Notes: generated by a model from the letters alone, not told the origin. Positions 12,670 to 52,823 are shown, counted from the whole stretch's first letter. The stretch: 62,105 bases of DNA, filler included, from Asterionella formosa (GCA_002256025.1; 4 parts of 4 records of this genome joined end to end with filler, not necessarily neighbours in it), one strand, 5' to 3'. Numbers and translations are program-made.

Positions 12670-13620
12670 GCAGTTGGGTTAAGACACAAAACTCGACAAA
12701 AGCACTACTTTGTAGATGTTCATGAAAAGCGAGACACTTGGCCTATCGCCCACCAGCCAGTCTATACTGCAAAAATGCAAGAAGCACAAGTTGAATGCCC
12801 ATTTATGGATTCAAGTTTCAGTAGTGCAACAATGTAAAATATTAGAAACCGGAAGTAACATTTGATCTAATTACGGTTTTAATTTTAATAGTATTGATCA
12901 TTGAGAGGAAGCAATGGTGGAAGAATGCCAAACGGGCGGGGGGAAACAACACAGAGGAGCCTAATTTTTCTCCCCAATGATCCCAGACCCTCTTGGATGT
13001 TACTTGCTACAGAAAATGGAGAACAGCCGACATGATCTGTTGATTGTTGCTTTATGGTGCCACTGACCAAAACCTCCAGAAATCTCAATGAGTTGCTTGT
13101 TTCTTGACTTGAGAATGCAAAAGGGATCGAAACCAGTGGAAAAATCAAACTAAAAATGCTCTGCAAACATCGGGACAATTGTGAAAGAGAAATGAAGGTT
13201 CTTGGGAGGAGAGGTAAAGGTATAATTGCTTCTGGTCTTGCGGGAACAAGAATAGATTGACCCAAACAATGTTGACAAATAATTACCTACGGGAAAAGGA
13301 AGCAATGATTTCAGCATCATCAATCTAAACACAAGCCCGCGCCACCTGATGTCTTCAATATAGCTACCTCGACTTCATCAATGAAGAAGTCAATGGGTGG
13401 AGCATGTGAGGAAAATAGGGGTTGAGGTTTTCTTGACGCTAACGTGGACCTGCTTGGCTGAACTCCTTGCAGATGAAGGCATTGAGTAACCTGGGCCTGT
13501 GAAGCCAAAGGATAAAGAAAAATCTACGACAAGGGTGGTGAGATAGTGTTTAGGAGGGGGGAGCAAAAGTTAAAATAGCTGAACGCATTTGACACTTGTA
13601 TAGACAATAGATGGTGGCAT
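12670..13620 (+). pseudogene. Decayed IS630/Tc1-like DDE transposase
   Basis: Pieces read across frameshifts: 'RQKHYFVDVHEKRDT' (YxDGHE-type motif), 'RGKG...IDPNNVDK', 'DFINEE', 'IGVEVFLT..AELLADEGIE'. Confidence 0.6.
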
Positions 13621-15463: not shown

Positions 15464-15563
15464 NNNNNNNNNNNNNNNNNNNNNNNNNNNNNNNNNNNNN
15501 NNNNNNNTTAATTAATTAANNNNNNNNNNNNNNNNNNNNNNNNNNNNNNNNNNNNNNNNNNNN
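15464..15563. other. Artificial scaffold spacer
   Basis: N44-TTAATTAATTAA-N44, giving stops in all six frames. Confidence 0.97.
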
Positions 15564-16199
15564 GAACAACCTAAACTAGATTAGTAAACTCACAATAAGA
15601 ATATAGAAACGGAAAGAGAAACGAACGTCTCTATCTATAGTCTTCTTTGTCTAACGATATAGATCTATACAAAAAGGTAATACTTTAACATATGTGAACG
15701 ATATAATTCAACATTTCAGGTCTCGTAAAAATAATACCGAGTCTACAGAGATAATATTATAACGTGTTCAAAGTAAGCGTTAAAGCATAGCTTAAACCAT
15801 GCATGGCTGTTTTTAGTACCACGTACATATGTAGACTAGATGACTGCCAGTACCGGTAGAATATCCGTTAAGCATCATTACATACATGACCGGAGCAAAA
15901 ACTTGCCACCAACATCAAATGTATCGATATCATCGTTCGTCCGACGAAAAATGGACGATGCGATTACATGAATAGTACCTCGAGAAGACAAGCAATCCAA
16001 CGATCAACCGCATCCGTTAGGCAAAGAATCCCTACTGGCGTCATCGCGGAACTGATTTCGCTTCAAAACGGTCATGATGGACAACGATTGGCATGGTGAA
16101 AGGTGAATTGCCGGAGTCCACTTTTCAGGAGACGAACAAAAACGAGGTGAATTCTAGATGTAGATTATTTGAATTTTTATAGTATATAAAATGGTTTCC

Positions 16200-16669
16200 T
16201 TAAGTAGACCCCTTGCCGATTTCGGCAATCCCAGGGCTTGAAAACCGAGGGGCAATTGGTGTCTGTTGTCTTGCCAAAATGCGAACATATGAAATATACA
16301 AAATATATTTTAATGATGGGCAATATCGGACCTTTGGCAATTTTCGAGGTGAAGATAAGAAATATCCAAAATATATTTTATATGATGGGCAATAGTAGGC
16401 TAAAATTGACATTAATGCTATATTTTTGGGCAGTAGGAAAGCGAATGACGCGACGATAGCTAGAGCGGGAATTGCCTCAACAATACCCTTCTCGGCGGCT
16501 ACTTGCCTTCTCGTATACATGTGTACTCGGCTGGGATGGCACTCGTAGTGTGACCTTCTCTCAGCGCCGGGGGCGCCACTCGTACAGTCAACCTACTCGC
16601 GCCACCCAGCCTCGAAGATATGTACACTCGCAGGCAAGAGACCACCTCGGGCGTGTATTGCCTTCAGCA
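16200..16669. mobile_element. Non-autonomous repeat ending in a CTCG-periodic hairpin (copy 1)
   Basis: Homologous to 22903-23377, sharing gatttcggcaat, aaatatccaaaata and tatgatgggcaat motifs and the terminal hairpin. Confidence 0.65.
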
Positions 16670-16774
16670 CTACTCTTACCCTGTTGTTTTGGTACCAGGT
16701 ACCAGGTACCAGGTACCAGGTACTCAATGATCCGCTGCTTACAACATCTGTGCTAGCATTATTGTAAAGGGATC

Positions 16775-17530
16775 ATGTTGTCCTCCGCTGTTCGTTCCGC
16801 TGCTGTGCGCAACAAGGCCTCTCTTCATGCTAGTATTGCCCGTCGATGCATGTCGGGTACATACAAGTCGCAAACCTCTGCTGTGAGTCCATTGTCAACA
16901 GAATCAGGGCATTCTTTCTTTATCGCATACAATTGAGTCGAAGTAATCATTTTTGACGAGTTGAGGCTCACAATAATCGTTCTTCCTTCTCTATCATAGT
17001 TGAACCGTTTGGATAATGTTGATGAGGTTTTGTCGGGAGGCGCCGGCGTCCCTGTCGCGGATAATATTGAGTACGCAATTTCCAGAGTGGATGACTTGGT
17101 CAATTGGGCCCGCAAAGGTTCTCTCTGGCCCATGACGTTTGGATTGGCGTGCTGTGCTGTCGAAATGATGCATGCGGCTGCGTCTCGATATGATATGGAA
17201 CGGTTCGGTATGGTGTTTCGGGCATCTCCTCGGCAATCAGATGTCATGATTGTGGCTGGTACACTCACTAATAAGATGGCCCCCGCTCTCCGGAAGGTGT
17301 ACGATCAAATGCCTGAACCCCGCTGGGTGGTGTCGATGGGATCTTGTGCCAATGGAGGAGGATATTACCATTATTCATACTCGGTGGTGCGAGGATGCGA
17401 TCGAATTGTCCCTGTAGATATTTATGTTCCTGGTTGTCCTCCAACTGCCGAAGCTTTATTGTTTGGATTGCTTCAACTGCAAAAGAAGATCAAGGGTAAC
17501 AAGTCATTGCTCCTACGAATGAGAAAGTAA
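16775..17530 (+). CDS. NDUFS7: Mitochondrial complex I subunit NDUFS7/PSST (NuoB); exons 16775-16882 and 17000-17530
   Basis: Transit-peptide-like exon 1, phase-0 GT(gagt)...AG intron, and motifs [49 protein letters not shown]. Confidence 0.96.
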
Positions 17531-19007
17531 CGAGTATTATACAATACAGCTGGACGAGTTGGCATGTGATGTCAACTCCCTAAGAATTTGTCGAAACATT
17601 TTATATATTCATTTTTAAAAATCAAGTGCTCGCTGCCTATTATTCTTGACCGATTTTTGTTTGGCTTTTATTAGTCACAATAGATTCCCCCCTCTATATT
17701 TAGCACGACTTGTGCCTGTTATCATAGTCAGTATAGCCAAGGAACTGGTCTGCTGTAAAGGCAATTCTGGTTTTGACCACTGTACTCAACCCATATTTGG
17801 GGGAGGATACAATTGAAAAATAGTTTTTAAGAACAGGTGCCATGATGTATCTTACAAAGGACCCTTCAGCATCCTCTTAACAACTGATCAGCAGGGACAA
17901 GTAAAGCAACAAACATGTTATTCTAGCTATCAACAGCTGTGGCAATGGAGGAGTGACAGACGCAATTCCCAAATGGATTGTTTGGAGATATACTTTCTAT
18001 CTGCCAATTGCATACAAATTACTAGCTAATGGCCTACTGATCCATCAGCCTATTGATCCATCAGATCATCAAAGTGCCTCAAAACATATAATAATAGCTA
18101 ATCGTTATTTCCTATAGTTTGCTATCAATTACCCTGTTTATGAGGCCATTGACACTACCAAAAGCACCACCATTGTCAATCAATTGATTGATTTAGCATT
18201 GCTAGTGGTTTTCTCATGGTTAATTGTGGTCGAGGGGTGTTTCAATGGCCGATTTTTCCAAAATAAACAAGGAGTAACATAAAGTACTGTAGGTATTTCT
18301 TGAGAGACTCCACTAAAATTTCGGTGAAACTCGAAGAAGAAGTTTTACCTATCGGAAAACCGACTAAAACACCCCGGAAAATCCAAACGTTTGGCTATGG
18401 CGAAGGTTGCATGTGCATATTATTTTTACGACAAATACATAAGCAATGCAAAAGAACATCATGATCCAAAAAAACCCGTTTTGATGCATTCTGCCCATTT
18501 TCGGTATACGTAGACTGCCATACTATCTCATTGGTATCATGATACAATATCTGAAGCATTACATACGACAGCCATCGCATAGATACTATGACGTCTAGTA
18601 TCATCAGTCGGTACTACCATCAAATTAACACTAGTGGGCCGCATTTTCATAACAACAATTCTTGATGGCGGTGACGCGAGGTAACACCACAAGTAACATA
18701 TGGCTGAGCGATGGATGCTCGTCCTCATCAAGACCATCGCAAAAATCGCTACTCCGAAGTTACCAGGGTACCAGGTACAGGTACAGATACTATATCATAT
18801 GTGGAAGCAAGGAAAAGGAACTGATAGCTTAGCATTCTATCATCATCAGAATTCGCATGGTGGCAACAGCGAGACCTGCTTACACAGATCTCTAGTTGCA
18901 AGAAGTCTACTACTCCAAAGTAATTCGTGTCGCTTCGGCACGCAATCAATAACCAAGTTTTGAAGGGTAACGACACAAAAATCGTTCCATAGACAACACG
19001 ACACATA

Positions 19008-19679
19008 ATGCCAGCAGTATCGAAGGACTGCAATGCCTGCGTCAAGAGGAGCTGGTCTACTTTTCGACTTTTCCTTCTACACATGGCATTAGGTTTACAT
19101 CAAGGCGATTCTTTTACGGTACGGGAAAATATGATTCATCCAGAAACAGCACTTTTCGGTGCATCTAAAATTCAACGAGTCGGTCCCTCCGATGACGACA
19201 CACCATTTGTTCTTAATGGAAACAAACCGGAACAAGCAGAAGAGCCACTGGTAATCCCTGCTCATTCATTGGACATATTATTGTCGCCATCCTCATCTGT
19301 GGATATGAATCAGATGGGACCCACAGCTCTGGCATATCTTGGCGATGTCGTCTTTGAACTCTTTGTCCGCTCGCGCAAACTCTGGCCGACGAGGCGAACG
19401 GATGATCTTCAATTACAGGTCGTCGCACTTGTCAACGCCGAACATCAAAGTAAACTGTTGGCGTCACTTTTAGAAAATTTTGAGTTGACGCCGGCAGAAC
19501 TCCAAATATTATCCAGAGGCCGAAACGCATCCACATCGAAATCCAACAATCGAAAGAACCCAAAGGCCTATCAAGATTCTACCGCTATTGAAGCGTTGAT
19601 TGGATATTTGTATATTACAGATAAGGCAAGATTAGAAGTTTTGTTCAATTGGATTTCTGTTTTTCTGGAGCGCGTCTAA
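19008..19679 (+). CDS. Mini-ribonuclease III (MrnC-like), probably organelle-targeted
   Basis: ALAYLGDVVFEL, RGRNA and YQDSTAIEALIGYLY; no dsRBD; N-terminal extension. Confidence 0.88.
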   Translation: MPAVSKDCNACVKRSWSTFRLFLLHMALGLHQGDSFTVRENMIHPETALFGASKIQRVGPSDDDTPFVLNGNKPEQAEEPLVIPAHSLDILLSPSSSVDMNQMGPTALAYLGDVVFELFVRSRKLWPTRRTDDLQLQVVALVNAEHQSKLLASLLENFELTPAELQILSRGRNASTSKSNNRKNPKAYQDSTAIEALIGYLYITDKARLEVLFNWISVFLERV

Positions 19680-19838
19680 GGAGGAGCCTCCAATATTGCT
19701 TTCGAATTCTACCTCATTGTGCCGATTATTAATTTAAATTAGTAATATCCGACGTTAATTGATGTCAATGTACGAATACAATTTTTCTACCCATTGTCAA
19801 CAATTTTTAAAACACAGCCATTCCAAGCGAGGCGACCT

Positions 19839-20951
19839 TCAAAAAACGAAATTGGCGGCAAACCAATCCAAAAGATTTATTTGGATATCCTCCGACTTTT
19901 TCTCGGACATTGTAATGTCACCCCAAGGTTCAGAAAAGATTTGATTGCCAAATGGCACAGTTCGCTTGTCGCGCGCATTCATCCATGTCGTAACAGCAGC
20001 AGCGACTGCTTTGGGAGCTTCATGGTTTGGACAGTGTCCCACTCGATCCAACTCCAGATATCGCTTGGCAATATCTTTGGGCAATTTCTCTAAAATTTTC
20101 TTGGCAATGGTTGGCGTGCACCATGGATCCTTTGCACCAAAAATAACTAAACAATCGCAAGGCAATTCACTCACTTGCGTGAACCAATCCTTGCCAGTGG
20201 CCGGAGGCGACCACATGATACTGGAAAATGCAACGTGTGCACCCTTGCCTAGGGTACATGATTGAATTTGTTGAGGCAATTCTCCTTCAAAGGCCATTCG
20301 GTGAAAATACGCATTGTCCAAATACTTTTCAATTGTCGCCAAGTCTCGAATCCAATCAAAAAGCTTGCGACCAATTATCTTGGGTAGTTTCGGGGAAGGC
20401 AAACGCCCTGACCATCCAGGCAAATTCAATCCCCATACCGGCGTTGCATTGAGTAATACTAGACTAGATAATGGTATTCCTCGATGCGCCAAGGCGACGG
20501 CCAAATGCCCCCCTACGGAATTCCCCACTACGTGCGGTGAGGCCTTGACGACGACGTGAATGAACTCTTCCAGTTGTTCCAACCACGTGTCAGCGGAATA
20601 TTGAAGGCCTTGCTCTTGAGGGCTGAGGCCATCTTGGCAGTCTACGGGCCATGATTTCCCTTGACCTAGATAATCAACAGCATAAATGGTACAGCTCGAA
20701 TCCTGCTCTATTAATTCGGATATGAGTCGGTGTTGATGAAAGGATCCAACGCCAAAGCCATTGAGTAGTAAAATAGTTTTCTTGTCAATTCTGGTGGTCT
20801 CATCAGAATTAGCCGATTGAGCGTAATCAAAAGCGATAGAGTGGCCTCGCCAAGTCCAGGTTTTCTGCTGGATCGTGATGGATGAGGTGGCTTGGGCAAA
20901 TACGAACATCAAGAACGTGAAGTCTAAAATGAAATGCATGATAGGAAGCAT
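19839..20951 (-). CDS. Alpha/beta-fold hydrolase with signal peptide
   Basis: LLLNGFGVG, VDYLGQGKS, nucleophile elbow GNSVGG, GAKDPW, GHCPNHEAP. Confidence 0.88.
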   Translation of the reverse strand: MLPIMHFILDFTFLMFVFAQATSSITIQQKTWTWRGHSIAFDYAQSANSDETTRIDKKTILLLNGFGVGSFHQHRLISELIEQDSSCTIYAVDYLGQGKSWPVDCQDGLSPQEQGLQYSADTWLEQLEEFIHVVVKASPHVVGNSVGGHLAVALAHRGIPLSSLVLLNATPVWGLNLPGWSGRLPSPKLPKIIGRKLFDWIRDLATIEKYLDNAYFHRMAFEGELPQQIQSCTLGKGAHVAFSSIMWSPPATGKDWFTQVSELPCDCLVIFGAKDPWCTPTIAKKILEKLPKDIAKRYLELDRVGHCPNHEAPKAVAAAVTTWMNARDKRTVPFGNQIFSEPWGDITMSEKKSEDIQINLLDWFAANFVF

Positions 20952-21563
20952 AGTATTTTTTGATCAGCATATAGCTAAAACGATGTTAATGACAAAAAGA
21001 GTCAAATAGTGACGAAGACAATAGCAAACAGGCATACACTGTTTAGTCACCAACATTTGCATTTAAAATAAAAGTGAAGCAATTTTACCAAGACGAGTGA
21101 TCCTGAAATGGAAAACGAGATCAACGGAGAGGAATGGTGTCAACATCAGCATACTATGGTACCATACCTGGTACCAGGTACTAGTATCGGTTGACTATCA
21201 TACTATCATACTGGTACCAAGTATACTAGGTAACCGGGACTTTTCCCAAACAGGGTTGAAAAGAGAAAAGTATTCGTAAATTCAACTGCCCATTGGCATT
21301 TGCACCACCGATTGCACCACTATTACTTAGAGAAACCAAAAATGCACCATCAGACTACGCATATATAAAATCCGTGCTTTCTGCCTGCACTACCGTATTG
21401 ATATTTGCTACAGAGGATCACGATCAGATTCATCTTGCTGATCATCCACCATGACCAGAGGAGCAGTGAAAAGTGAACCATGCACATGGCGTATGATGCT
21501 GCTGATGCATCATGCAGCTATTCAGCATCATCCTTCCTCCTGCGTGGAGGATTGCTGGAGGTA

Positions 21564-23377
21564 AGACTCCTCCTGAGTAGGGTCTTACCTAGGCAATTCA
21601 CAAACTAGCTATCGGCGCGCTTTTCGCCACTACATTGCCCTTTCTGGTAACATTGAAATCCTATTTTATATAGTTTGTATGTTGGATGCGAACTAGCCAA
21701 TTGCCCATCATATAAAACATATATTGTAGATTTCACATGTACAGTTTTTGGATTACTCAATCCTGCAATTGCCCATCATATAAAACATATTTTGGATATT
21801 TCATCTGCTCCGTTTTTCGACTGCCAAACTACCTTCAATATTTTCATTGGCCCCTAGATTTTATTGCCGAAATCGACTGCCGTTTATTTAAGGGAAATGG
21901 ATTACTGATATCTACAGCCCCTCAATTGACTGCTGTTTACTTAAGGAAAATGGACTGCCGAAATTGGAAGGGAGTAGGATGAGCTATGTGAAGGCACAAC
22001 TTGATGGTTTTCTTTAAAGTGTCCATGGCAATTTCACTTTTTTCATCCCTGCTATCATCCAGCATGCTCCGAGGTATAACAACTCTGTTCGCTCATTGAC
22101 GTCTATAACATCGACTCTTAATCAAATGGATCTGGGTGGTTGTTGGATAATTCGACTTTTTATGGGATTCATATTGTCGTATTGTGCTTGCTTCGTCACA
22201 GTGGCGCCAAAATTTCGTTTCCCCTTTCTGTTGATTTCCGATAGCCTTTCCGGTCAACTCCCACACCCACAGTTCTCATCGAAAAGCAAGATGATAGCTA
22301 GGGTGGGGATTGCTTAAATTTTGGTTTCTTAAACTAATTTCTTTATTTAGGGGGAAATATGGGGCACATTGGATTTTTCGGCAGTCAATTTTAGGTTTGA
22401 GCAGTGGGACCATCGAGCAACGTCAGGAGTAGTATTTTTCATGGGAAAAAGTTTAGACACATCAAAAATGTATGGACCACCGAACATACCGGTACCAGTA
22501 TATGCATGAAAAATAGTCACACAAGAATGATTGGAACAAGCATCGAAAATTCGACACGATGTTGTTAAGCAACCAAAGTATGAAACGGAAATTGAAAGGT
22601 ACGACGTGAAAATGACAAGCAGGGAGTAAAATGAAAAGTGAAAAAAATGGGTCAGCGGAAAAATCGTGTTAAATTTTGTCAATGAATATTCATTAACAAT
22701 TGTCAACTCACACTTTTTTGTCGTTGCAGCCAACGAAATTTCAAAAATTTTCAGATCGGGCCTGGAGGAGCAGAAACCGATGCCTGAATGGATTAAGTGG
22801 CAATGCTTGTTTCTGATTTGATTTGGACTTGTGGTTGTGGAGGTGTTGGAGGAGCAACAGCTTGATGGCAGAAGTTTCTTGGTGCTGGCGGTGCAGAATT
22901 CTGGCAGTCGATTTCGGCAATAAAATCTAGGGGCCAATGAAAATATTGAAGGTAGTTTGGCAGTCGAAAAACGGAGCAGATGAAATATCCAAAATATCTT
23001 TTATATCATGGGCAGAGAGTAATCCAAAAACTGTACATATGAAATCTTCAATATATGTTTTATATGATGGGCAATTGGCTAGTTCGCATCCAACATACAA
23101 ACTATATAAAATAGGATTTCAATGTTACCAGAAAGGGCAATGTAGTGGCGACAAGCGCGCCGATTGCTAGTTTGTGAATTGCCTAGGTAAGACCCTACTC
23201 GGGAGGAGTCTGCCTACTCGTAATCTTGTGTGCTCGGCTTGGGAGGCCCTCGCAGGTTGACCTTCTCGCAGCGCCGGGGGCGCCACTCGTTCGGTCAACC
23301 TACTCGCGCCTCCCAAGCCTCGAACACAAGAATACTCGCAGGCAGTCTCCACCCTCGGTCGTGTCCTACCTTCAGCA
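21564..23377. mobile_element. Fold-back-like element with ~310-bp inverted arms (21564-21881 / 22903-23211) and a terminal hairpin on the right
   Basis: The arms are near-perfect reverse complements with one small indel. No credible protein between them; 22320-22590 resembles 30590-30810. Confidence 0.8.
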
Positions 23378-23536
23378 GTCTACATACGTGAAATGTAAAG
23401 TGCCACGTGCGTAGAATAGATACCTGCCGATATGTGATTACAAGCTGAAGCAACCTCCTTGACCTTCGATTTGTGATTGTTGTTTGCACATCGTGTTGTA
23501 AGAAGTGATAGCGGTAGTCTCCCACCGGAATACTAA

Positions 23537-25048
23537 ATGAGCAAGTGCCCAGTTGATCCCCGCAACATCAAAGAGTTCTTCTACACCGCAAATATGAAGC
23601 TTGATCTCCCATGGACGCCTTATTACTCACAATCAGGGGAGACCTTGACGGCGAGTCCTGACGACTCCCTCGCCTATTGGGCCCTAGCAGCGACGATAGC
23701 CTTTACAGTGCTGGTGTATTCCTTCGAAGGCCATTTGGATTCTCGCCAGAAGGAAAGCTACCTCGGAAAGATGTTTCCGAAGGCGCTCGAAGCGACGGTG
23801 GCTGCGATCGATGCGGAGCGCAAGCAAAACGGAAAGGAAGCCGCAGATGCGGATGCGGAGCCGCCATCGAACAAAGAGCTCCTTCCGCAACTGAAAGACA
23901 AGTTCGAGTCGTCTCAATCGTACGGGTTGGATAAAATCAACTTCGGCATGATTAGTTCCACCTTTGATACAACTGAAAGCATTGTCTATTTGATCATGGG
24001 CTTCTTCCCCTTCGTTTGGGACATGTCTGCTACTATTGGCCAGCGCTTTGGATGGACTCAACAGGACAATGAAATTAAGATCTCACTCATCTTCCTCGCC
24101 CTCACCACCATTATGGGAACAATAACCCAGCTTCCTTTTGAATTGTATTCGACGTTTCGCATCGAAAAGAAGCATGGATTCAACAAGCAAACCCTGGGTC
24201 TCTTCTTCTCCGACAAGCTCAAGTCGTTGCTTCTCACTGCTGCTATTGGAGGTCCCTTTGTCGCGCTTCTACTTACCATAATCAAGTCGGGTGGACCATA
24301 CTTTTACCTATACGTATGGGCGTTTATGTTTGTCTTCTCAGTCATTATGATGACGATTGTGCCAGTCCTCATTATGCCTCTCTTCAATAAGTACGAACCC
24401 CTCCCGGAGGGTTCCTTGAAAACTGCCATTTACAAACTAGCCGATACCTTGCACTATCCGCTCACCAAACTATTTGTCATGGATGGTAGTAAGCGAAGCT
24501 CACATTCCAATGCCTTCATGTTTGGCTTTGGCAAGAACAAGCGAATTGTTTTGTTCGATACGCTCATGACGCAAGTACACGAAGACGAGATTTTGGCGAT
24601 TCTCGGCCATGAACTTGGACATTGGAAGCTTGGGCATACCTTGTCGAACTTTCTCATTACCCAGCTATACTTTGGTGCGGCCTTTTATATCTTCTCCTTA
24701 TGTTACACATCGGCTGATCTGTATCGAGCCTTTGGCTTTGACTCCGCAGAAACCAACACACCTACGATCATTGCCCTCTTACTCTTCTTTCAAACCATCT
24801 GGTCGCCTGTGGACAAAGTCTTGAGTTTTGTATTGACCATGTTTTCCCGACACAATGAATTTGCAGCAGATGCCTTTAGTGTGGAATTAGGCATGTCCCA
24901 GAAGTTGCAGTCGGGTCTTTGCAAGATTCATTTGGAGAACTTAGGAGCCATGTGTCCAGATCCATGGTATAGTATGTATCATTATTCACATCCACCCTTG
25001 GTAGAACGCTTGAGTGCTATGATGAAAATGGATAAAAAGAACAAATAG
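23537..25048 (+). CDS. STE24: CAAX prenyl protease 1 (peptidase M48A)
   Basis: Multi-TM ORF with TFRIEKKHGFNKQT, DGSKRSSHSNA, HELGH zinc motif, EFAADAF and YHYSHPPLVERL. Confidence 0.96.
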   Translation: MSKCPVDPRNIKEFFYTANMKLDLPWTPYYSQSGETLTASPDDSLAYWALAATIAFTVLVYSFEGHLDSRQKESYLGKMFPKALEATVAAIDAERKQNGKEAADADAEPPSNKELLPQLKDKFESSQSYGLDKINFGMISSTFDTTESIVYLIMGFFPFVWDMSATIGQRFGWTQQDNEIKISLIFLALTTIMGTITQLPFELYSTFRIEKKHGFNKQTLGLFFSDKLKSLLLTAAIGGPFVALLLTIIKSGGPYFYLYVWAFMFVFSVIMMTIVPVLIMPLFNKYEPLPEGSLKTAIYKLADTLHYPLTKLFVMDGSKRSSHSNAFMFGFGKNKRIVLFDTLMTQVHEDEILAILGHELGHWKLGHTLSNFLITQLYFGAAFYIFSLCYTSADLYRAFGFDSAETNTPTIIALLLFFQTIWSPVDKVLSFVLTMFSRHNEFAADAFSVELGMSQKLQSGLCKIHLENLGAMCPDPWYSMYHYSHPPLVERLSAMMKMDKKNK

Positions 25049-25208
25049 TCACAATTGAATCAGAAAAAGTCATTGTGGTGTAGTAGGGTATAGCTGCCGG
25101 TATTCATGCTCTAGTTTTCGGTAGACTAGATGCATTGTTTAATTTATAATTCGAGGCTCTGCGTCGCCAATACGTTTAGCCTAGACTTCGATACCCCTCG
25201 GGGCTGTT

Positions 25209-26318
25209 TCACGAGAAAAACACTTCATTGTCCTGTCCTCGATACAGCATTGTTGGCTTCGTCCGAAGTACATCCATCCCGAGCACACAAGCTGGCGCAT
25301 CGACACCTAATGTCGAAGTCATAGCGACTAGCCCTGGAATATCACCGACGTAAATCTGACCACTTCCAAAGTCCACTGCTCCATCTGCCAAACTCACTGC
25401 CACCTTATCGACACTCTTGACCAATTGAATTCTCTCGCCCCCAGGCGGCCCAGCCAACAACAAAACATCACCCCGTGATGCAGCGTTGGCTGTCTTCACT
25501 GCATTCACCATGTTACTGAATGGATTTGAACCACCAGAGTCAGTGACAACTCTTCCTTTCACTCCCGCCAATTTGGCAGCTACAGCATTCACAACAGTTA
25601 TAGGTGATCCAGTGTCCAATAAGGCCACCATGTCTACACCATTGATGCGCACTATAACAGTAGGAAGCAACGTGATAGGGAGCGGTATGATGGGTACCTT
25701 GACCTTGTCAGTCGTGTCTTGACGTGTGCTGTAAAAAGTAATAGATCCAGCCCACTCGAATTCAACACCGCCTTGAAAGCAATCAAGAAATGCTTTGCTC
25801 AAGAGTCCGGCAGCGGCGGGACTGGGAAGAGCAGATGCAGTCAGACCTTGCATAAAATTTACTTCTCCGAGCCCTTCAAGTTGACAGTCACCAAGCAAAA
25901 AAGTATTTGCACCAGGCATGGCACCAGTTGCGGAGAGTCCAGGTGGAGCTTGGCCGACTACGTCAAGTCTTAATTCTTGGGCTACTTGAGAATTTAATGT
26001 ATTGGTATTGGCTGCCGTGTCGAGAACGAAGTCCAAAGAAACACCAGTTGCATTGCGTTCTTTCATGGCAGTAGTTGCCAAATGGGGAAAGCGGAGCCCA
26101 ACGGTAGGGTAGGGACCCACGTATTTGAGTGGGGCCCGGACAGAATAAGATGGATCTTCAGTTCCAACAGAAGGAGTCTCGGCCTGAAAACCGAAAGTAG
26201 AGTAAATGGTAGTACGAAATGCTGTCGGTCGCTGATGTGCCGGGACAAAGGCATAAGCAATGGAGAAGAAGACCAGAACCAACAGTGCATGTAGTTGAAA
26301 GGTCGTTTTCGCTGACAT
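25209..26318 (-). CDS. Two-lobed retropepsin-like aspartyl protease, likely plastid-targeted
   Basis: Signal peptide ending AYA-FVP; FVLDTAA and ALLDTGS motifs; AGLLS and VLGMD flap-closing motifs. Confidence 0.75.
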   Translation of the reverse strand: MSAKTTFQLHALLVLVFFSIAYAFVPAHQRPTAFRTTIYSTFGFQAETPSVGTEDPSYSVRAPLKYVGPYPTVGLRFPHLATTAMKERNATGVSLDFVLDTAANTNTLNSQVAQELRLDVVGQAPPGLSATGAMPGANTFLLGDCQLEGLGEVNFMQGLTASALPSPAAAGLLSKAFLDCFQGGVEFEWAGSITFYSTRQDTTDKVKVPIIPLPITLLPTVIVRINGVDMVALLDTGSPITVVNAVAAKLAGVKGRVVTDSGGSNPFSNMVNAVKTANAASRGDVLLLAGPPGGERIQLVKSVDKVAVSLADGAVDFGSGQIYVGDIPGLVAMTSTLGVDAPACVLGMDVLRTKPTMLYRGQDNEVFFS

Positions 26319-28016
26319 GACGGCTCTATACGATTATGATGTATTTATGGTTTAAAATCTTTCGATGTGAATTCCTTAGTGCATATTATGAACCTAACCT
26401 GGATTTATTGTTCATATCAGCTTAACCAATCCCATGTGATGTGTTGCAGGACGTTTTACATTGATGATGGCCCCCTTGACTCAGCCATCTATGAAGACTC
26501 GCTAACAAATCGTCAACACTTTTTCTTACATAGTAAGAATATCATTGCATCATCACTCATTCCGATTCACGACCCACGTGGTGACGAGGAGTCTTGAAAT
26601 GAATAGTTACCGGTATGTAGCACCTGGTACCCGGTACCTGGTACCAGTACCTGGTAGTACCCCACCAGGTATTATGAATCCTGAACATACCGTTAGCTAG
26701 TAAGTAATTCTTACCGGTGCGTACCTCTACCGGTAGGTAAATTCTACAAGAGTACTGGTACCGGGTAATTCTATGTGGTGGCATTCCGACCTGGTACCGG
26801 TACATGTGAAATCATAAATAGAGTCTATGAATGATAGGTATGTAAAAGGAACAATTCTAATCCTCCCCCGCATAATTAACACTCCAAGAACCTCGTAAAG
26901 CGATCATCATTATATTTCTTTTCTTTCGCATCCTCATCTGTAATTTAAGCATTCGAAATTCATTGACTCACTACATCCAACCCCGATGCATCCTGTGTTG
27001 TTTGATGCAAGTGTGACTAAGTACTCTTATACTTGGAGTACTCTGTTTCCCCTTCGACCTGAGTTCTATCCTTGCACTGTCGATGAATATTAGTTTAGAC
27101 TGGGCATGTGATAATAATAGCTTGTACGGCCTCTTCTTATGTATTACAGTATCTGGTGATGCCATCGTCAAAACTGACCACGTCGCTCTGATTGCTTTTG
27201 GGTGACGATGACAGGGGAGTAATCATGATATTGTTGCGAACTCAAAATTGCAGCCTGGCGTGGTTTGACTAGTCGGACTAATGATGCGAAGTGAAATGTG
27301 CCACGCTGTCATCCTTTCATTTGCAGTGGATACCAGCAATGCGCAGGTACATATTTATATTGTGCTACTAGTCTACCGTAATAATATATCCCTGACAAGT
27401 ACTGTACGTCCTACACAGATACATCGTTTACATAAACAGTCAAATCTGCTGATGTCATCATCACAATTTGCCACATGGGTGGAACAGCAATGGTAGATGC
27501 CTTCATGTTTTGTATGAACATATCATAAAAATAATACATGGATTAATATTCCTTGTTGATGAATCCGACGAAACACATTGTTTCTTTCAAGATACATCGT
27601 AAATACCGTAAGTAGTCACGAAAGAAAGGTGGAAATCTATTGACGTCCTTGCATAAAACTGCATGCTTTCAATTGAAAAAGCAAACAATGCGGCTGCAAC
27701 CGATAAAAATAAATGCTTTACCATGGAGAAAGTCGAATGAATCCAATTCTGCGATGAAATTGGCTTCCACCATAGCTAAATTTATTTATCGTTTTTTCGC
27801 TCGTGGGTCGAGTCAGAATACCGGTAACAACCGTTATCGTATTTGAAGTGTTCTTTTACTTTTTGACACGACGTGAAAATTTCGAATGTAGAAATCAGCA
27901 AAGTCCTGTTTGTGCAAGATTGATCTTGTTTGCTAACTCATGCTTCTATTACTCCCCTGCTGATTTATTTGTTGCAGGTATATGCATTCATTCAGTTGTC
28001 ACCAACAAATTACATC

Positions 28017-28646
28017 ATGTCAGCTTACGCCCTTCATTGCTTTCCTCCAATTCCCTCCTTGGACTACGAGCAAAACCAGTATGGCGCTTACAGCTTTGAG
28101 ATCTCCCCTGAAATAACTCAATCGATACACCACATCTCCAATCGTTTTGCCGACTCTATGGGCGAAATAGTTGTTAAGGTCACACTTGCCAAAATTGATT
28201 TTGCCCGACTTTGTAGGACAGGTTTGCATCCAGTCCCTCAACTGGCCAACCAAGGGGCGCAACTTACGAGCCACGAAGAAGCCATGGAGCTTGATTTAGA
28301 CATTCGCATGAATGGGCGGTGCTACAGTGCCTCCAGGAGCTTGTCTAGAATAGTGCAGTTGAGGCGAGATATACAACGAGAGTACAAGACCCAAGTCGTT
28401 CCGGAACTGCCCACAACGCTTCAACAAGGTCATCGAGGCTTTGCGATGTTGAAGGAGTTGTGCGCGAGGTATGCACCGGAAATGCACGAATGGTTTGCAA
28501 GAGTGACCTTGGATTTTCACGAGAGCTCAGCCTTGAACTCATTTCTGTGGGAACCTCTGGAACAGCAGCAACCACTGACAACATTGAATGGATCAAAGTC
28601 ATTTTCGACCTTGGGGAGTATCCCAGAACATGATGGGGACTCGTGA
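28017..28646 (+). CDS. Hypothetical protein (possibly PX-like C-terminal half)
   Basis: Long open frame with coding-like composition. YSASRSLSRIVQLRRDI...VPELP...LNSFLWEP loosely recalls PX domains. Start uncertain. Confidence 0.55.
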   Translation: MSAYALHCFPPIPSLDYEQNQYGAYSFEISPEITQSIHHISNRFADSMGEIVVKVTLAKIDFARLCRTGLHPVPQLANQGAQLTSHEEAMELDLDIRMNGRCYSASRSLSRIVQLRRDIQREYKTQVVPELPTTLQQGHRGFAMLKELCARYAPEMHEWFARVTLDFHESSALNSFLWEPLEQQQPLTTLNGSKSFSTLGSIPEHDGDS

Positions 28647-28868
28647 GAATGATATGCATTATTTGTACTGCTTGATACGATGCTACTGACTAGGATACTA
28701 GATCGGATACTAGGATGATGATGTAGATTAATGAAAAGAATGGTTTAGATGAGCCACTTACATAACTAAACAATGTCCTAAATCTTCAAATCTAGACGAC
28801 CTGCCAGACTGCCAGCTGGCCATCATTGAAAAGAAATAGTATTTATGAATTGTATATCTATTGATACA

Positions 28869-29213
28869 GGAAATGGCTCAGTCGGTTGAGCGAATTGCCT
28901 TTGATGTGTGGTTCAATTCCTGAAATTTTTGAGAAGCATTTGTTGGGTTCGACTCACACTCCTTACTGTCCTGCACAGTCTTGTCTGGTGTGCAAGAAAT
29001 AGTGGGTTTGCCCCCCCCCCCTACAAGCAGCTTGTGCCGCCTTCCTAGGCAGTCGGAGTTTCCCCTGATGCTGTGGCTAAGACAATCACCTATTGCAAAA
29101 GGTGGTTGGGGACTCAATTACACTAACAAAACTAGGGAAACACAGGTCTTGTTGGCAGGTAGCACAATGAATACTTGCCTTGAAAGAGGGGAATATGAAT
29201 GGGCTATAAAACA
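28869..29213 (+). mobile_element. tRNA-derived SINE-like repeat, copy A
   Basis: A-box TGGCTCAGTCGG (28874), B-box GGTTCAATTCC (28910), second B-box at 28945; body homologous to 38468-38791. Confidence 0.6.
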
Positions 29214-29730
29214 GATTATCATTTACTATCTATTGATACATTTGATTTGATGTGAGTGATTGCCAATGTCAATGAATTATAATTTCCCCCATCAGTTGGA
29301 AGCAATGAGTAAGATTCGAGTATACCAAGGTTGAATATTTTAGGCATCAGAGAATTTTGATCATGTATAATATGGTTGCTGGTAAAGACTATCTTGATTC
29401 TATGTACTGCAGCAGCATATTTGTATCAAAATGCAACTCAGAACATTCCATTCTTAAAAAGTGCCAATCGAACTTACCATTAGTCATATTCACTCCCAAT
29501 GGATATATATAATATTTTTGATTTCAATCAAATGCAATAAAACATAATTTTTTGATCTCATGAGTAGGATCACAAGCGGATAGAGTCGAGGATTATGGAG
29601 GGTGACCAATGTGGTAAATGGCAAACTCCTCAGAAAGCAGTTATCCTACCGCAGCGGATACAAGCATCGATTGCGTCAATTCAAACCAGATAAGTTACAA
29701 CCTTGTACATGAACGACAAAACACAGAGTC

Positions 29731-30168
29731 TCACAAAGACTCAGTCTTGCTACTACTTTCCACATTGACATCAACATTTGTCTCCGTCGATTTCTTCATA
29801 CGACCCCGACGACGTTGGCGTCGAGCTTTCTTTTCCTTTGCGGACTCATCATGCCTTTCTTCTATTTCGGCATTAGCAGGTGCGATGTTGTCGTGTAAAA
29901 TACTAGTATGTGATGATTTTGACTTGTGTCTGTTTCGTTCGCTTCGACTCTTTTCGTCGCCATTGTCGGCATCAGCAGGTGCAGCATTGTCATGTTCAAT
30001 ACCTGTGTTCGATGATTTTGACTTATGTCTGCGTCGTTCGCTTCGTCTCTTGTTGTCGCCGCCAACATGGTTGACAGTAGCAGGTGTGGTTGTTGAATCA
30101 GAATCAATCAAGATCTGTAAAACAGTTTCTAGGTCCACAACAGGTGAATCAACTGTGAGCTCGATCAT
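29731..30168 (-). CDS. Low-complexity basic hypothetical protein with an internal repeat
   Basis: Duplicated RSE..RHKSKSS...HDN.APA.A motif; may be a terminal exon or a relic. Confidence 0.35.
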   Translation of the reverse strand: MIELTVDSPVVDLETVLQILIDSDSTTTPATVNHVGGDNKRRSERRRHKSKSSNTGIEHDNAAPADADNGDEKSRSERNRHKSKSSHTSILHDNIAPANAEIEERHDESAKEKKARRQRRRGRMKKSTETNVDVNVESSSKTESL

Positions 30169-30589
30169 TTTATGAGATTTCCTGCCTTTTAGCCAACCAC
30201 TCTGAATGTAAGAATATCAAACGACCTTTATAAAAAGCCAGTGGCTGTATCTAAATATTATGCCGTGTGATAAGGTGTCGATCAATTGCAATGACAAAAA
30301 ACGAAGCAAGGTATTATCTAGCAGTGTCATCGATAACTTGCATATTGTGTTGTTATCTAAATGAGAGTGGTTGGTACCGGTATGCAAATTGCAGCAAATG
30401 TGGTATGATTCTTGGTTTTCTACTACGTACCATGGTACTGGTACCAGGTCAGAGGGTACCATGTCGATGCATCCTATGATGTATGATGACGAGGCGCAGA
30501 TGGTCCCAAAGAAGGCGCAAAACGAGCAGCTGAACACCAGCAATTCCCGCTCCAGCTATCGTCTTGGCATTCGGGTACTTCTAAGTAAT

Positions 30590-30810
30590 TTTTAGTCTCT
30601 AAGTAATTTCTTAAGTAATTTTTATTTAAGGGCAATATGGGGCACATCGAATTTTTCGGCAATAAAATTGCCGATTTTAGCATGACAACCAAAATAACGG
30701 TAATATGCGTAGAGATGGTACAGCAAGCGTGAAACACACGAGAATGATTGTAACATGCAACATCAACGAAAATTGAACATGATGTTTGGAGCAACCAAAG
30801 TATGAAATGC
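30590..30810 (+). repeat. Fragment related to the interior of the 21564-23377 element
   Basis: aatatggggcacat...ttttcggca and agaatgattg...aaaatt...accaaagtatgaaa are shared with 22320-22590. Confidence 0.65.
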
Positions 30811-31023
30811 AATGTAATAAGTAGCATCAAATGAGAAATAGAAAAAATTGCTTTGGGTTAGAAATGAAATAAAAAATAAGAGTTCCAATGGAGACATATG
30901 CATTGTGAATCATTGTAGTACTACTTACACACCAGGCAACATTGACTTTCCATCACCACACAATCGAAGACCGAAATAAGAAGGGAAAAGCTGAACCCAA
31001 TCTTGACCTACATCGTTATGTAG

Positions 31024-31123
31024 NNNNNNNNNNNNNNNNNNNNNNNNNNNNNNNNNNNNNNNNNNNNTTAATTAATTAANNNNNNNNNNNNNNNNNNNNN
31101 NNNNNNNNNNNNNNNNNNNNNNN
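31024..31123. other. Artificial scaffold spacer
   Basis: N44-TTAATTAATTAA-N44. Confidence 0.97.
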
Positions 31124-31641
31124 GATCTGCGAAGCGAAGCAAGGCAGGGCAAGACTGCAACGATAGTTGGTATCGTGGTATGATTACACTGCCTGCTTGC
31201 TGTGCCAACAGCCAAGCCAGAACAGCAAGAAAATCGGGAACAAGGAGGCAGCAAGGCAGGTTGTTCTTTCGTGTAATTACTGGTCATGGTGGTCCGTACC
31301 AGGCGCACTGCCAGGTACTGTAGTGGTACGTTCTGGTAGTACGCGCTGGCAACAAGAAGCGTCATGACAAGACTTGGAATACCAGCTGGTACCATGGTAC
31401 GTACGTGCGGTCCACATACACATGTCTGTGCATATAGGCAGTAGTCTACTGGTACCTGGTACCTACTACTCCGAGTACCGGTAGATGTGGAACATGCACA
31501 CGCTACGACTTGTGTGCTGGTCTCTCAAGGAGTATGCCGGTACCGGTATACCAGTACCTACCGGGATAGCGATGAACATTTTGTCTTTTTTGCCATGATT
31601 GATGATACTCACTCGTCCTTCACAATTGCAGCATTATTATT

Positions 31642-33085: not shown

Positions 33086-33882
33086 GGAAAATGGTGTCAG
33101 CGAAGAAAAATGAGGTAAGATATCGGTATAGATCTTCGTGAGCACCAGGTCCAGCATCGTCAGACTGATGTCATCCTTCGTACACCGGAAGGCGGAAGGT
33201 ACCAGGTACCAGGTACCTGGTACCCCTGGTACCTCACATAACCAATGATAGGACCAGTTACCCGTACAAATGAATACTAACTATGTACTGGCACCTTACC
33301 GGTACTCCGACTGGAACATGATGTGGTCTGAGCACCAGTACTGGTAGTCTCTCGGAGACAGTTACTCCGAGTTCAAGGAACCATAGGTAGGCAGCAATAA
33401 TTTCATGATTTTTACCTGGTTCAAGGTACCTGGTACCAACTCCTGAGTTCTCCTTTTCTTTTGACTAGTTCGACTGGTCTTATTCAATGCTCCTGCTCCT
33501 TGCTTCGGCTGGTGGTAGAAACACACTTTCCTGTGGTCGTACAAGTTTGCTTAGGTGCTAGAACTTTATGACCTCCACCAAAATTCCGTGATGAGAATGA
33601 AAAGCACGACGAATTCCGGAATGGCTTCATTCCGCTTGATGGAGGATATGATTCATCAAGCAGGCCAGAATTGAAAACTATACCGGTACATGAAATAAAA
33701 CGTGCATAATAATTCCGGTTACCGGCATTACATACCACCGGTAGACATAAATAATTCTGCATCATGTCTTTTTGATTTCCGTCAAAATACAAAGACAACA
33801 TCCTCACCAGAACCTTATTCATCCCTGGCTACAGTCGCCTACCTGTAGATTCGCTTTCAGCCTCTCGCCTACTACACATGCC

Positions 33883-38791: not shown

Positions 38792-39982
38792 TACTATCCT
38801 TTATATAAGATTGAAAATGCATTTTAGCTATTCATTATTTTGGTGGACCTGATGGTACCAACCAGGTCTGACAAAATACAAGCAGGCAACCTCTAAGTTT
38901 GTTCGGTCCTCCGCTGAAATGTGTATCATGGCACTGTCATCAACTCACTGTATGAAATCGTTTGTATCACAACTAAGTGACGTAAATATTGTATGCGAAC
39001 TTTATTCTTCCTTCAAAGCAACAATGCGACAATGTCATAATATGAGCAAATGACTACCAGTGTCAAGAATATGGCATCAATGGCTATATTGAGTCACAGG
39101 GACTGTGGACTCAACTATAGTCCAATGAGTCAAATGGTGTATTCCTATGTCAAGAAGCTTGCTAACGAGATTGATGTCTTAATTCAATCAGAAGAAGGAT
39201 TACATCGACGAAAAGGGAACACGAAGAACAGGATCTCGAAGTGTGATGAATGGGATTGACACTTAGTTTTAGTTTAAGCTTATAATTGAGAAATAGTGAG
39301 AATTGACAGAGTTAGGTAAACAGCGAAAACTAGCACGAAGGCTAGCAGCAGAAATATAAAAATTCTAGTGGTACAACAGGTAAGACGTACGTAAGAGCAT
39401 TGCTGTCAGACGGGAAGGAGTACGAGACCTTTTTACATACCCGTACCGGTACCGGCAAGCAAAAGTTCAGTCTCTCAAAATCAAGCTCTATTGGAGANNN
39501 NNNNNNNNNNNNNNNNNNNNNNNNNNNNNNNNNNNNNNNNNNNNNNNNNNNNNNNNNNNNNNNNNNNNNNNNNNNNNNNNNNNNNNNNNNNNNNNNNNNN
39601 NNNNNNNNNNNNNNNNNNNNNNNNNNNNNNNNNNNNNNNNNNNNNNNNNNNNNNNNNNNNNNNNNNNNNNNNNNNNNNNNNNNNNNNNNNNNNNNNNNNN
39701 NNNNNNNNNNNNNNNNNNNNNNNNNNNNNNNNNNNNNNNNNNNNNNNNNNNNNNNNNNNNNNNNNNNNTCGTAAGTTGATGTTTGATATGCATGGTCTCA
39801 CATTCTACTTTTATGCGACGACGCGGAACATCTGCATTTATTGTTGGCATATCTCTCACTTGCTTCTGAATCCATTCATCCTTGCTGCAGTAGTCATGTC
39901 CTTTCTCCTCCGAGCCAAGAACCGTCAGAGGTCCCATCCCCCAGACCAAAGTAATTTGATACCACGAAACAAAACATCATCA

Positions 39983-43663: not shown

Positions 43664-44443
43664 GCAGCTTTATACCGGTATATCATATGCGTTGTTGTGT
43701 CAGGAGGTATGCTTTGTAGGCCAATCAATGCATCTAGTATTGGNNNNNNNNNNNNNNNNNNNNNNNNNNNNNNNNNNNNNNNNNNNNNNNNNNNNNNNNN
43801 NNNNNNNNNNNNNNNNNNNNNNNNNNNNNNNNNNNNNNNNNNNNNNNNNNNNNNNNNNNNNNNNNNNNNNNNNNNNNNNNNNNNNNNNNNNNNTGGTACT
43901 GGTACCGGTACTTGAAGAAGAAATATTCCCCAAAATATACGCGACTATGAAATATAAAGACATAATTTCATGTACGACATTGTGTTCTTTTACCGGTAGT
44001 CCAGTCTACTTATCCGCCTTCACATTTTACATCCTAAATTTGGCAAGACCAATGCCAGAAGGGCACAATTCGACAATACCTTATTCGATGCACCCCTTCT
44101 CACCACCCTGCCTCCACAGTCTATGTAAGCTTGTGCAACCCAACAAACTCCACTCTACTACCTGTTTATTGAGGCACTATGAGGCGGTCTCAAACATTTA
44201 CTTAGCAATTAATTAAAATTAAATTATACCCAATAGTAAATTTTTCAATGATAACCCCAGGGCGCAATAACTTTTACTGGTATACATTCAATATATAAAC
44301 TGGGAATAAATGGACATCATCATTTAAAAAAATAAAAATCTCAGTGTATACCCGACAAACATTTCCCCAAGTTCAACCTCTCTGACGGCAGGGGTGATTG
44401 TTTCTAAGAATCAAAGACACGAATAATGATCGTATTCGCTATC

Positions 44444-46575: not shown

Positions 46576-46675
46576 NNNNNNNNNNNNNNNNNNNNNNNNN
46601 NNNNNNNNNNNNNNNNNNNTTAATTAATTAANNNNNNNNNNNNNNNNNNNNNNNNNNNNNNNNNNNNNNNNNNNN
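46576..46675. other. Artificial scaffold spacer
   Basis: N44-TTAATTAATTAA-N44. Confidence 0.97.
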
Positions 46676-50130: not shown

Positions 50131-50133
50131 TTA

Positions 50134-51640: not shown

Positions 51641-52514
51641 GGTGTGTTGGTATACAATTCTATATCAATGCCGCACACCCACCTAATCTTTGCTACTGAC
51701 TCTTCTGTTTCTCTATCAATATGCATCCAATGTATGATGTGGAATGATTCAATTTACTGGAAGATATTGTACAATAAGTTACTATCACTATGCAAGTCAC
51801 TGGAAGATAGTATACAATAAGTTACTATCAATAGCTATATCATTCATGCAATTAGCACAATATTCTATAGCTTTGATGTCACCACACCATTTTATATCAA
51901 AGCAGCACAATTTTGCCAATGATTGTGTCCCACTACTGATATTCATATAACTTTTTTATCAATTTACCACAAATAGTAGCCACTTGAGGTTGAAATTATT
52001 GTATAACAAATCTTCCTTGATTTCGTACTTTTTATAACCATGGGAAGGTTCTTGGGATGCTGCTCTCACTCATTGACATGGCTGGCTCACTCATTAACTA
52101 CATTGCATTAGCTACTCTTAGTGGTCACCACTGTCAAATATTTTACATGGTTTCATGTATGTATAACATGTGTACCAGTATTTATGCTAAATTTTTATAT
52201 GGATGGTGTCTTTTGCTATTTATTTTGGTGTCTGATGACGTCATGAAACCTATCCCTATCCCCAAATTTGAGCGGATTAGGGTTAGGGTTTCACAATATC
52301 TCCACAACCGGTTTTATTACATCACTAAGCGTGCTCCACAAAACCCGAAAAGTACGTGGAGATATTAAGAGGTTTACGGTATGTAAGTAACCGGAAGTAA
52401 GCACACCGACTTTTTGAAAAAAAAAATGGTTAATACCGATATGCATACAGGGATGCAAGATGTATGTACTACGTCGTACTCCTGTGTATGATGCATAACG
52501 ATATTTACCACAAC

Positions 52515-52676
52515 TTTTAATGTCTGCATATGATGCTCCATACATGTGCCGTACAAACCATACTGGCGCAGCCACCAGATTAGGTACATGTGTGAGTGCT
52601 AACAACGGTGTACTCGAAACAGCAATAGAATAGTCATTGTAGTTCACCTTTATTCACAACAAGGCTCCCCTCAACA
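52515..52676 (+). repeat. 5' LTR (162 bp)
   Basis: Matches 57812-57978; starts TT (TG in the 3' copy) and ends CA. Confidence 0.92.
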
Positions 52677-52823
52677 GAACTACAATATCTGTTCTCTCTC
52701 CCTTGTCTGCACCTGTGACATTGCGGCTCTTGTCGGTGGTGCAAACCAGCACTGTTCTCAACAATCAACTGTGAAACACCGCTTGCCTGTTCACGTTCCC
52801 TGTCTCTCGGGCCTTCTTCCACC

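Follow-up and report, generated by a model that had tools for sequence, protein, structure and literature searches.

The window examined here, a 62,105-nt stretch of DNA from Asterionella formosa (GCA_002256025.1) in which four parts of the genome are joined with filler, contains at positions 23180-23377 a long, imperfect hairpin of about 195 nt whose two arms carry the tetranucleotide CTCG at regular intervals. Is this hairpin a structured RNA or the end of a mobile element, and what do its regularly placed mismatches mean? A preliminary description, made from the sequence alone, proposed either a strand-specific structured non-coding RNA (ncRNA) or a single-stranded DNA terminus or origin of an unclassified mobile element. 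Here we show that the hairpin forms the right end of a multi-copy repeat family with defined left and right ends, and that its mismatch steps are fixed in register across two subfamilies while the stems between them show compensatory change. We tentatively read it as a signal for single-strand transposition. Evenly spaced mismatches of this kind, confined to one strand, are unusual for a transposon end.

The hairpin is the following feature:

23184..23377, plus strand: hairpin copy A, with five CTCG/CTCG steps, a GCGCC-ggg-GGCGC apex and, at 23377, the element's right end (...CCTTCAGCA)

The sequence bears out what had been described. CTCG starts ten times with a spacing of 19-16-16-16-21-17-16-16-19, and the GCGCC-ggg-GGCGC centre and four pairs of complementary spacers can be read directly in 23180-23377. 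The CTCGs are direct repeats on both arms, while the spacers are reverse complements. Across the window, 13 overlapping matches to the pattern CTCG-N10-18-CTCG-N10-18-CTCG were counted where 0.08 would be expected, a number that none of 100 shuffles reaches, and all 13 are confined to two sites, 23198-23357 and 16491-16649. Predicted folding energies for copy A as RNA are -101.3 kcal/mol on the plus strand (z -7.9) and -132.1 kcal/mol on the minus strand (z -14.2), with 0 of 200 shuffles as good for either strand; as DNA the values are -50.6 (z -6.7) and -62.5 (z -9.9), respectively. Both strands lie far beyond the shuffles, and the proposal that the minus strand folds better holds for RNA and DNA alike. 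In the energy model, the 2x2 loop formed by minus-strand CGAG/CGAG contributes -0.7 kcal/mol, compared with +1.4 for plus-strand CUCG/CUCG. It had also been suggested that plus-strand C/A mismatches become wobbles on the minus strand. This is true, but the asymmetry is weak (5-6 A.C-type against 2-5 G.T-type mismatches per copy, counted by aligning arm against arm, with some of them in the few flank bases at either end), too weak to serve as proof of the functional strand.

A second full copy lies in the same part of the window:

16476..16669, plus strand: hairpin copy B, 78% identical to copy A and in the same CTCG register, with its right end at 16669

Three metagenome contigs (L001-L003) contain the 21-nt apex and belong to the same subfamily as copy B. 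All five steps are in register in both subfamilies, so the CTCG register is conserved across copies as the preliminary description had implied. One step in copy B reads CTCT where L001-L003 have CTCG, and the single exception to the register is one flipped step in L002. The orientation of the hairpin relative to an adjoining inverted repeat, motif M, is identical in the four full copies (A, B, L001 and L003) and in the partial copy in L002. Identity between subfamily A and subfamily B (represented by L001) varies along the hairpin, with 60/64 positions shared in the central 64 columns, 39/61 in the 5' outer arm and 55/69 in the 3' outer arm. The covariation that the preliminary description called for is seen between A and B only: 8 of 72 stem pairs are changed on both sides and still paired. 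Shuffled controls give 2.0 +/- 1.2 such pairs (0/500 reach 8), and slid controls give 0-2. These are eight positions but one contrast, because all eight changes stem from the single split between A and B. Within the B subfamily, with the arms read by eye, bases 16549, 16617 and 16619 of copy B are replaced in most family members by better-pairing bases.

The flipped step in L002 lies at about 100-110 of the contig in the minus-strand reading (alignment columns 90-95), where CGAG stands in place of CTCG and exactly complements the partner arm. The change points to conversion from one arm to the other within the palindrome, and if such conversion occurs, the steps would be erased if nothing kept them. 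Deletions inside the hairpin are found as well. A third hairpin in the window (copy C, 21553-21591, minus strand) has lost its interior, so that ~31 nt remain from its start and ~12 nt from its end. In addition, 11 DNA and 3 RNA contigs skip 101 nt, passing from 16524 to 16626.

Every hairpin copy shares one layout, in which a non-coding body is followed by motif M of ~34 nt, the hairpin, the terminus ...CCTTCAGCA and then differing flanks. The parts identified in the window are these:

23148..23183, plus strand: motif M beside copy A, a subterminal inverted repeat directly 5' of the hairpin, with the core GAT(T/A)GCTAG...GAATTGCC
22903..23147, plus strand: non-coding region by the right end, in which a ~44-nt motif (...TTTTATATGATGGGCAAT) occurs twice and an A/T-rich TATA-like stretch is also present
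22315..23377, plus strand: element A, ~1.06 kb and non-coding, made up of an R-like body, the right-end region, M and the hairpin, with its own left-end inverted repeat missing
21553..22314, minus strand: element C, complete at 762 nt, with its left end at 22314-22293, M at 21613-21592 and its right end at 21553
15687..16475, plus strand: B-type body (L) and M, with M at 16442-16475 and copy B as its right end, 88-93% identical (as window 15687-16669) to L001-L003
30538..31023, plus strand: left end of a B-type element, comprising CAGCA, the inverted M at 30540-30573 and a body R that runs to the contig end

Motif M (GATAGCTAG...GAATTGC) has five matches in the window against 0.07 expected. 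The non-coding region at 22903-23147 is homologous to the sequence upstream of copy B, and 21564-21881 is a 97-98% identical inverted copy of 22903-23211. The left end of element C reads AGCAATCCCC..., which is an inverted M, and the inverted M at 30540-30573 is 88% complementary to M at 16442-16475 over 34 nt. At the right end, the copies terminate in ...CCTTCAGCA, and element C in CCTCCAGCA.

The boundaries of the family were defined with the metagenome contigs and with a public DNA sequencing run (X1), from which 125,831 contigs were mapped on window 15570-31020; the public runs containing the stretch are labelled freshwater, lake or algae metagenomes. Past the right end, the flanks differ in four of five copies (A, B, C and L003), and in the fifth, L001, a left end follows. 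Likewise, 58 X1 contigs diverge from the window after 16669, with a mutual agreement of only 0.38. Because the flanks differ past a constant terminus, the 3' foot of the hairpin marks the repeat boundary and hence the right end. L001 joins window 15916-16669 to window 30538-30971 (95% identical) through one CAGCA, with the inverted M following, and the same right-left join is present in five X1 contigs. The two halves are 13.9 kb apart in the window with ordinary housekeeping genes between them, which shows that 30538 is the left end of another element and that L001 represents a head-to-tail junction. Over ~32 nt (AGCAAT...TCTTG) the two subfamilies can be aligned at their left ends, and it was this conservation that identified the complete 762-nt element on the minus strand at 21553-22314. 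In all three left ends, AGCA precedes ATTCCC or ATCCCC. The left flanks read ...cac/CAGCA and ...ttta/AGCA, and the right flanks read CAGCA/gtct, /ctac, /atcc and /attt. No hairpin was seen at the left ends by reading the sequence.

Rearranged forms were also found. One contig, present in DNA and in RNA, joins 58 nt of the left end to the last 36 nt of the right end and may be read as a mini-derivative, and a right end with a second right-end fragment behind it was seen as well. The B-type family extends further left than the copy in the window (loose end at 15690, agreement 0.95). The distal ends of bodies R and L were compared in order to close the element, but they do not overlap. Taken together, the copies are multiple, the hairpin always stands at a sharp repeat boundary, and both ends are defined, as expected from the proposal that it is a terminus of an unclassified mobile element.

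The family is very abundant. In X1, where contig depth was summed per region, the sums are 1.9-2.2 million over 15570-16601, 0.27-0.35 million over 21246-23309 and 2.8 million over 30534-31020, whereas single-copy contigs over genes have a depth of 724-905; the repeat regions thus reach 300-3500 times the summed depth of their single-copy flanks. From these sums, which are not copy numbers, the family appears to comprise hundreds to thousands of copies, the depth in this one run pointing to roughly a thousand. The repeat itself looks non-coding: its frames are short and run only from stop to stop, the longest being 130 aa and running through the hairpin, and a 217-aa frame at 22350-23000 has no Pfam match. 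No Rep-helicase domain was found among the 23 open reading frames (ORFs) of the window that were scanned.

How could such an end work? The order of the parts, 5'-AGCA and an inverted M of ~30 nt, then the body, M, the hairpin and CAGCA-3', means that the left-end repeat can pair with the repeat just inside the hairpin. We favor, with rather less than even confidence, the reading that the hairpin serves as the right-end module of a non-autonomous DNA transposon family, very abundant and encoding no protein of its own, in a freshwater pennate diatom, and as a strand-discriminating cis signal for single-strand transposition. The element would move through a single-stranded DNA stage, and the hairpin, folding on one strand, would mark the point, a few bases past its foot, at which the transposase ends or cleaves the copy. 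The five CTCG-against-CTCG steps would make the two strands fold differently, with stable tandem G.A pairs on one strand and pyrimidine mismatches on the other. Once folded, each step would offer a site of two-fold symmetry that a dimeric protein could fit, and together the steps could tell the enzyme which strand it holds and in which orientation. We only infer that there is a single-strand stage, in which the hairpin acts as single-stranded DNA, and likewise which class of enzyme is involved and what the steps do. It is considerably more doubtful that the family is an undescribed diatom single-strand (HUH-type or similar) transposon family in which the five-step symmetric ladder, with G.A/A.G on one strand and T.C/C.T on the other, would bind a dimeric enzyme and signal the strand. 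We know of no strand-discrimination device on such a scale in described eukaryotic transposons.

Several observations weigh against single-strand transposition. The head-to-tail junction is rare, with a summed depth of ~1,100 compared with ~770,000 for the right end, and the depth sums behind the abundance are not copy numbers. Neither the window nor L001-L003 yielded a gene for a transposase, a Rep protein or a helicase, the small ORFs of the repeat lying outside the Pfam scan. The closest layout among known transposons, that of the Helitron2/Helentron group (HLE2), has its hairpin at the 3' end, and this orientation would put the weaker CTCG form, not CGAG, on the transferred top strand. HLE2 elements insert between T and T and have T-rich termini, neither of which is seen in the left and right flanks here. 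The sizes differ as well, being about ten-fold larger than described: the diatom hairpin measures ~195 nt and has five registered mismatch steps, and its inverted repeats measure 30-34 nt, compared with palindromes of 5-20 bp and repeats of 8-16 in the available parts of the HLE2 papers. The sole complete element has AGCA on both sides, which may represent either a duplication of 4 bp or a fixed target. Finally, the compensatory changes come from one subfamily split only, which makes them weaker proof of selection, and the more so because arm-to-arm conversion appears to happen within the hairpin.

One alternative is a cut-and-paste element. Such an element, resembling a miniature inverted-repeat transposable element (MITE) or a foldback element and mobilized by a DDE transposase, would have M and the inverted M as its real terminal repeats; the hairpin would be a subterminal palindrome, and its ten one-strand CTCGs, at ~16-bp spacing, would be duplex binding sites for a transposase or host factor. 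Inverted repeats of 30-34 nt that stand at the two ends or close to them, the high copy number, the small non-coding elements and their 5' intergenic position agree with this explanation; the CTCGs do form a direct-repeat array in duplex DNA, and the AGCA flanking the complete element could be a 4-bp target duplication. We nevertheless consider it unlikely. The extreme ends, AGCAATTCCC... and ...CCTTCAGCA, are not mutual inverted repeats, and the ~195 nt of the hairpin lie outside the right repeat. AGCA is identical in every copy and is therefore not a random duplication, and duplex binding sites need no palindromic spacers with compensatory changes. Junctions joined head to tail through one CAGCA would be atypical for elements that move by cut and paste, as would a right end with a second right-end fragment behind it. 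The head-to-tail junctions might instead point to a Crypton-like element, excised as a circle by a tyrosine recombinase and integrated by crossover at the short core AGCA: the same 4-5 nt (AGCA/CAGCA) stand at both ends, a single-copy junction form exists, and Cryptons, which have 4-6-bp terminal direct repeats, have been reported from one diatom (PMC3212892). The chance of this is small, as the available part of that paper mentions no hairpins or palindromes for Cryptons and gives mostly TATGG for the termini of CryptonS (PMC3212892), no recombinase gene is at hand, and GCA is part of the M pairing, so that the apparent direct repeat may be the end of the inverted repeat. That the sequence is not mobile at all, but a promoter or regulatory module of the host in dispersed copies, or else a low-copy duplication that is palindromic, is least credible, indeed highly improbable. 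In the second contig, each of the four element ends faces a neighboring gene from within 5' intergenic DNA, and A and C are a local inverted duplication with 97-98% identity; against this stand a depth hundreds to thousands of times that of single-copy sequence, tens of thousands of mapped contigs, sharp boundaries with unrelated flanks, deletion derivatives, and copies in three metagenome contigs. With only four cases, the fact that all four element ends face genes may be chance.

An action of the hairpin as RNA has to be weighed separately, since an ncRNA was one of the two original proposals. The hairpin could be a structured part of a transcript, such as a small-RNA precursor or a guide-RNA-like scaffold reading into the flank, or a minus-strand RNA. 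RNA-library contigs from three studies cover it, and some cross its end into other flanks. In the poly(A) run X14, 2-4 contigs lie over 16549-16619 and contigs cross 23365/23375 into other flanks; record 25 of run X8 and record 13 of run X12 also cover the hairpin. All four runs that were mapped consist of assembled contigs, from which no RNA strand, ends or level can be read. The hairpin appears to be part of longer transcripts, or the contigs represent carried-over DNA. An A/T-rich TATA-like stretch ~80 nt upstream of the hairpin and the very stable minus-strand RNA fold would also suit an RNA role. A free-standing, strand-specific ncRNA gene is not supported: the hairpin never occurs apart from the repeat body, the RNA contigs continue into differing flanks, and Rfam returned 0 matches at the gathering score in the whole window and 0 at E<=1 in 22850-23450. 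The possibility of DNA carry-over in contig data, the weaker CUCG form that outward transcripts would have, and the sharp boundary past the hairpin foot together with the left/right-end pairing, which are DNA-level features, likewise count against an RNA function. We regard it as rather improbable as the explanation of the hairpin, and an RNA role could exist alongside a DNA role.

The window consists of four pieces of 15,430-15,463 bases, with linkers of 44 N + TTAATTAATTAA + 44 N at 15464-15563, 31024-31123 and 46576-46675; we take the pieces as contigs that a fragmented assembly left separate. N runs are also present at 39498-39768 and 43744-43893. The second piece (15564-31023) holds the hairpins, and it begins and ends inside the repeat family. 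The neighboring genes are intron-poor and eukaryotic; among their products are an alpha/beta hydrolase and a protein with an RNase III domain. On the plus strand, 160 nt downstream of hairpin A, a gene for a CAAX prenyl protease (M48) begins (23537-25048), and the closest named relatives of the protease are from pennate diatoms, with 71-75% identity. A divergent intergenic region of 2.6 kb (20963-23537) separates the minus-strand hydrolase gene from the plus-strand prenyl protease gene, and elements A and C lie in it tail-outward.

Other repeats occur in the window. Arrays of a GGTACC(A/T)-type heptamer are scattered in intergenic DNA and are high-copy in X1 (loose ends at 16690 and 16723/16724). 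Arrays of this kind lie 20-40 nt past the right end in copy B and L003, and ~60-110 nt outside the left end at 30538. The arrays are located as follows:

16690-16725: heptamer array
21159-21190: heptamer array
26613-26660: heptamer array
30430-30480: heptamer array
31450-31479: heptamer array
33201-33233: heptamer array
33414-33445: heptamer array
48465-48494: heptamer array
49304-49336: heptamer array
49440-49471: heptamer array
58302-58334: heptamer array
L003, 757-780: heptamer array

Summed depth in X1 is also raised at 28986-29501 (~393,000) and 18150-18665 (~48,000), compared with ~800 for single-copy sequence, and these stretches are probably other repeat families. A degenerate Copia-type retrotransposon at 52517-57938, unrelated to the hairpin family, has weak RVT_2 and retroviral SH3-like matches in broken frames and is bounded by direct repeats of 125 nt (52517-52641 and 57814-57938, 94% identical). 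Inverted copies of ~400 nt in the first and fourth pieces (12961-13361 and 59239-59646, 90-100% complementary in blocks) belong to another dispersed repeat. A tandem array at 50132-51643 has a 188-nt unit repeated at least 7 times, and a 24-nt tandem repeat at 46908-47315 lies inside an open frame with a weak glycine-zipper match.

The prevailing view is that Copia-type retrotransposons dominate diatom genomes, and to our knowledge rolling-circle or other single-strand DNA transposons have hardly been described in them. A family this abundant in promoter-side intergenic DNA would be relevant to diatom genome annotation, assembly breaks and gene regulation. Its co-varying stems and five fixed steps with strand asymmetry offer a natural test case for how a transposase tells the top strand from the bottom strand. 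If the hairpin is a plain subterminal palindrome of a cut-and-paste element, the result is routine repeat annotation.

The expectation that the hairpin belongs to no described family agrees with the lack of a match in Rfam or in the main texts of the open-access papers searched; these gave nothing on diatom terminal hairpins or on a hairpin of this kind nor, judging by titles and abstracts, on non-autonomous diatom Helitrons. The one prokaryotic match to the apex 21-mer (L004, a metagenome-assembled genome of Dehalococcoidia) is attributed to chance, being GC-rich, without a CTCG ladder and without similarity beyond the 21-mer. Viral contigs gave 0 matches for the apex and 0 for motif M. A ladder of three CTCGs with N12 spacing was found at at least 120 loci in viral contigs (135 matches in the loci listed), 12 of the 135 having inverted copies of at least two of three spacers; among the best 15 of the matches listed, none resembles the diatom hairpin, and they are mostly tandem or low-complexity repeats.

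Integron attC sites are folded single-strand recombination sites in which unpaired bases set the strand used, and in the 'double-D' junction forms of adeno-associated virus (AAV) a palindrome lies between inverted D sequences, as the hairpin lies between M and the inverted M in L001. The enzymes, hosts and sizes of attC and AAV differ from those of the diatom element. Parvoviral terminal hairpins occur in both orientations (flip and flop). A hairpin-telomere or parvovirus-like terminus was rejected on the grounds of the one orientation in four full copies and L002 and of left ends without a hairpin.

Among transposons, the comparison rests on the available parts of the cited papers. Canonical Helitrons (HLE1) have 5'-TC and 3'-CTRR ends, insert between A and T, and carry a palindrome of 16-20 nt that lies ~11 bp from the 3' end (PMC4067079). 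With ends reading AGCAAT... and ...CCTTCAGCA and a hairpin of ~195 nt, the diatom element was not assigned to them. Replitrons, eukaryotic Y1 Rep transposons of algae including stramenopiles, resemble it in the short direct repeats that stand at either end (here AGCA) and in a palindrome near the right end. We did not adopt them as a home for the family: the right-end palindrome is 11 bp, and the available part of the source describes no inverted repeats and reports that Replitrons were not detected in diatoms (PMC10288648).

IS608, of the bacterial IS200/IS605 family of 'peel and paste' insertion sequences, has subterminal imperfect palindromes that are recognized on one strand only, as folded single strands, right-end cleavage a few nucleotides 3' of the hairpin foot and an abutted right end-left end (RE-LE) junction (PMC3201880). 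The diatom family resembles it in the imperfect palindrome of its right end, in an apparent RE-LE junction and in the constant tetranucleotide AGCA that precedes the left-end sequence. It differs in that IS608 has ~22-nt hairpins at both ends and two different tetranucleotides (TTAC and TCAA) (PMC3201880), whereas the diatom junction is seen in assembled contigs only (L001 and five X1 contigs) and reading revealed no left-end hairpin.

The closest correspondence is with HLE2. In Helitron2, the 5' inverted repeat lies 0-2 bp from the end and the 3' inverted repeat just upstream of the 3' hairpin (PMC3627910), and HLE2 elements are likewise reported to have short inverted repeats at their termini, the right one being followed by a 3' stem-loop (PMC11417382). 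A 5'-end inverted repeat, a subterminal 3' partner, a hairpin and the terminus form the layout common to Helitron2/Helentron (HLE2), HINE, DINE-1 and the diatom family, and HLE2 derivatives, like the diatom family, are non-coding and reach very high copy numbers (PMC3627910, PMC4067079, PMC11417382). In both cases the right ends are more conserved than the left, and compensatory changes maintain the terminal structures (PMC3627910, PMC4067079, PMC11417382). Pairing of the 5' repeat with a subterminal 3' repeat upstream of the hairpin is found in both diatom subfamilies, at far larger sizes. On the sequence evidence, the hairpin family would be a non-autonomous DNA transposon with HLE2-like ends, its membership in HLE2 being unproven and the T-T target of that group being absent. 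It is this HLE2-like layout, combined with the precedent of the strand-specific hairpin in IS608, that leads us to favor a single-strand signal.

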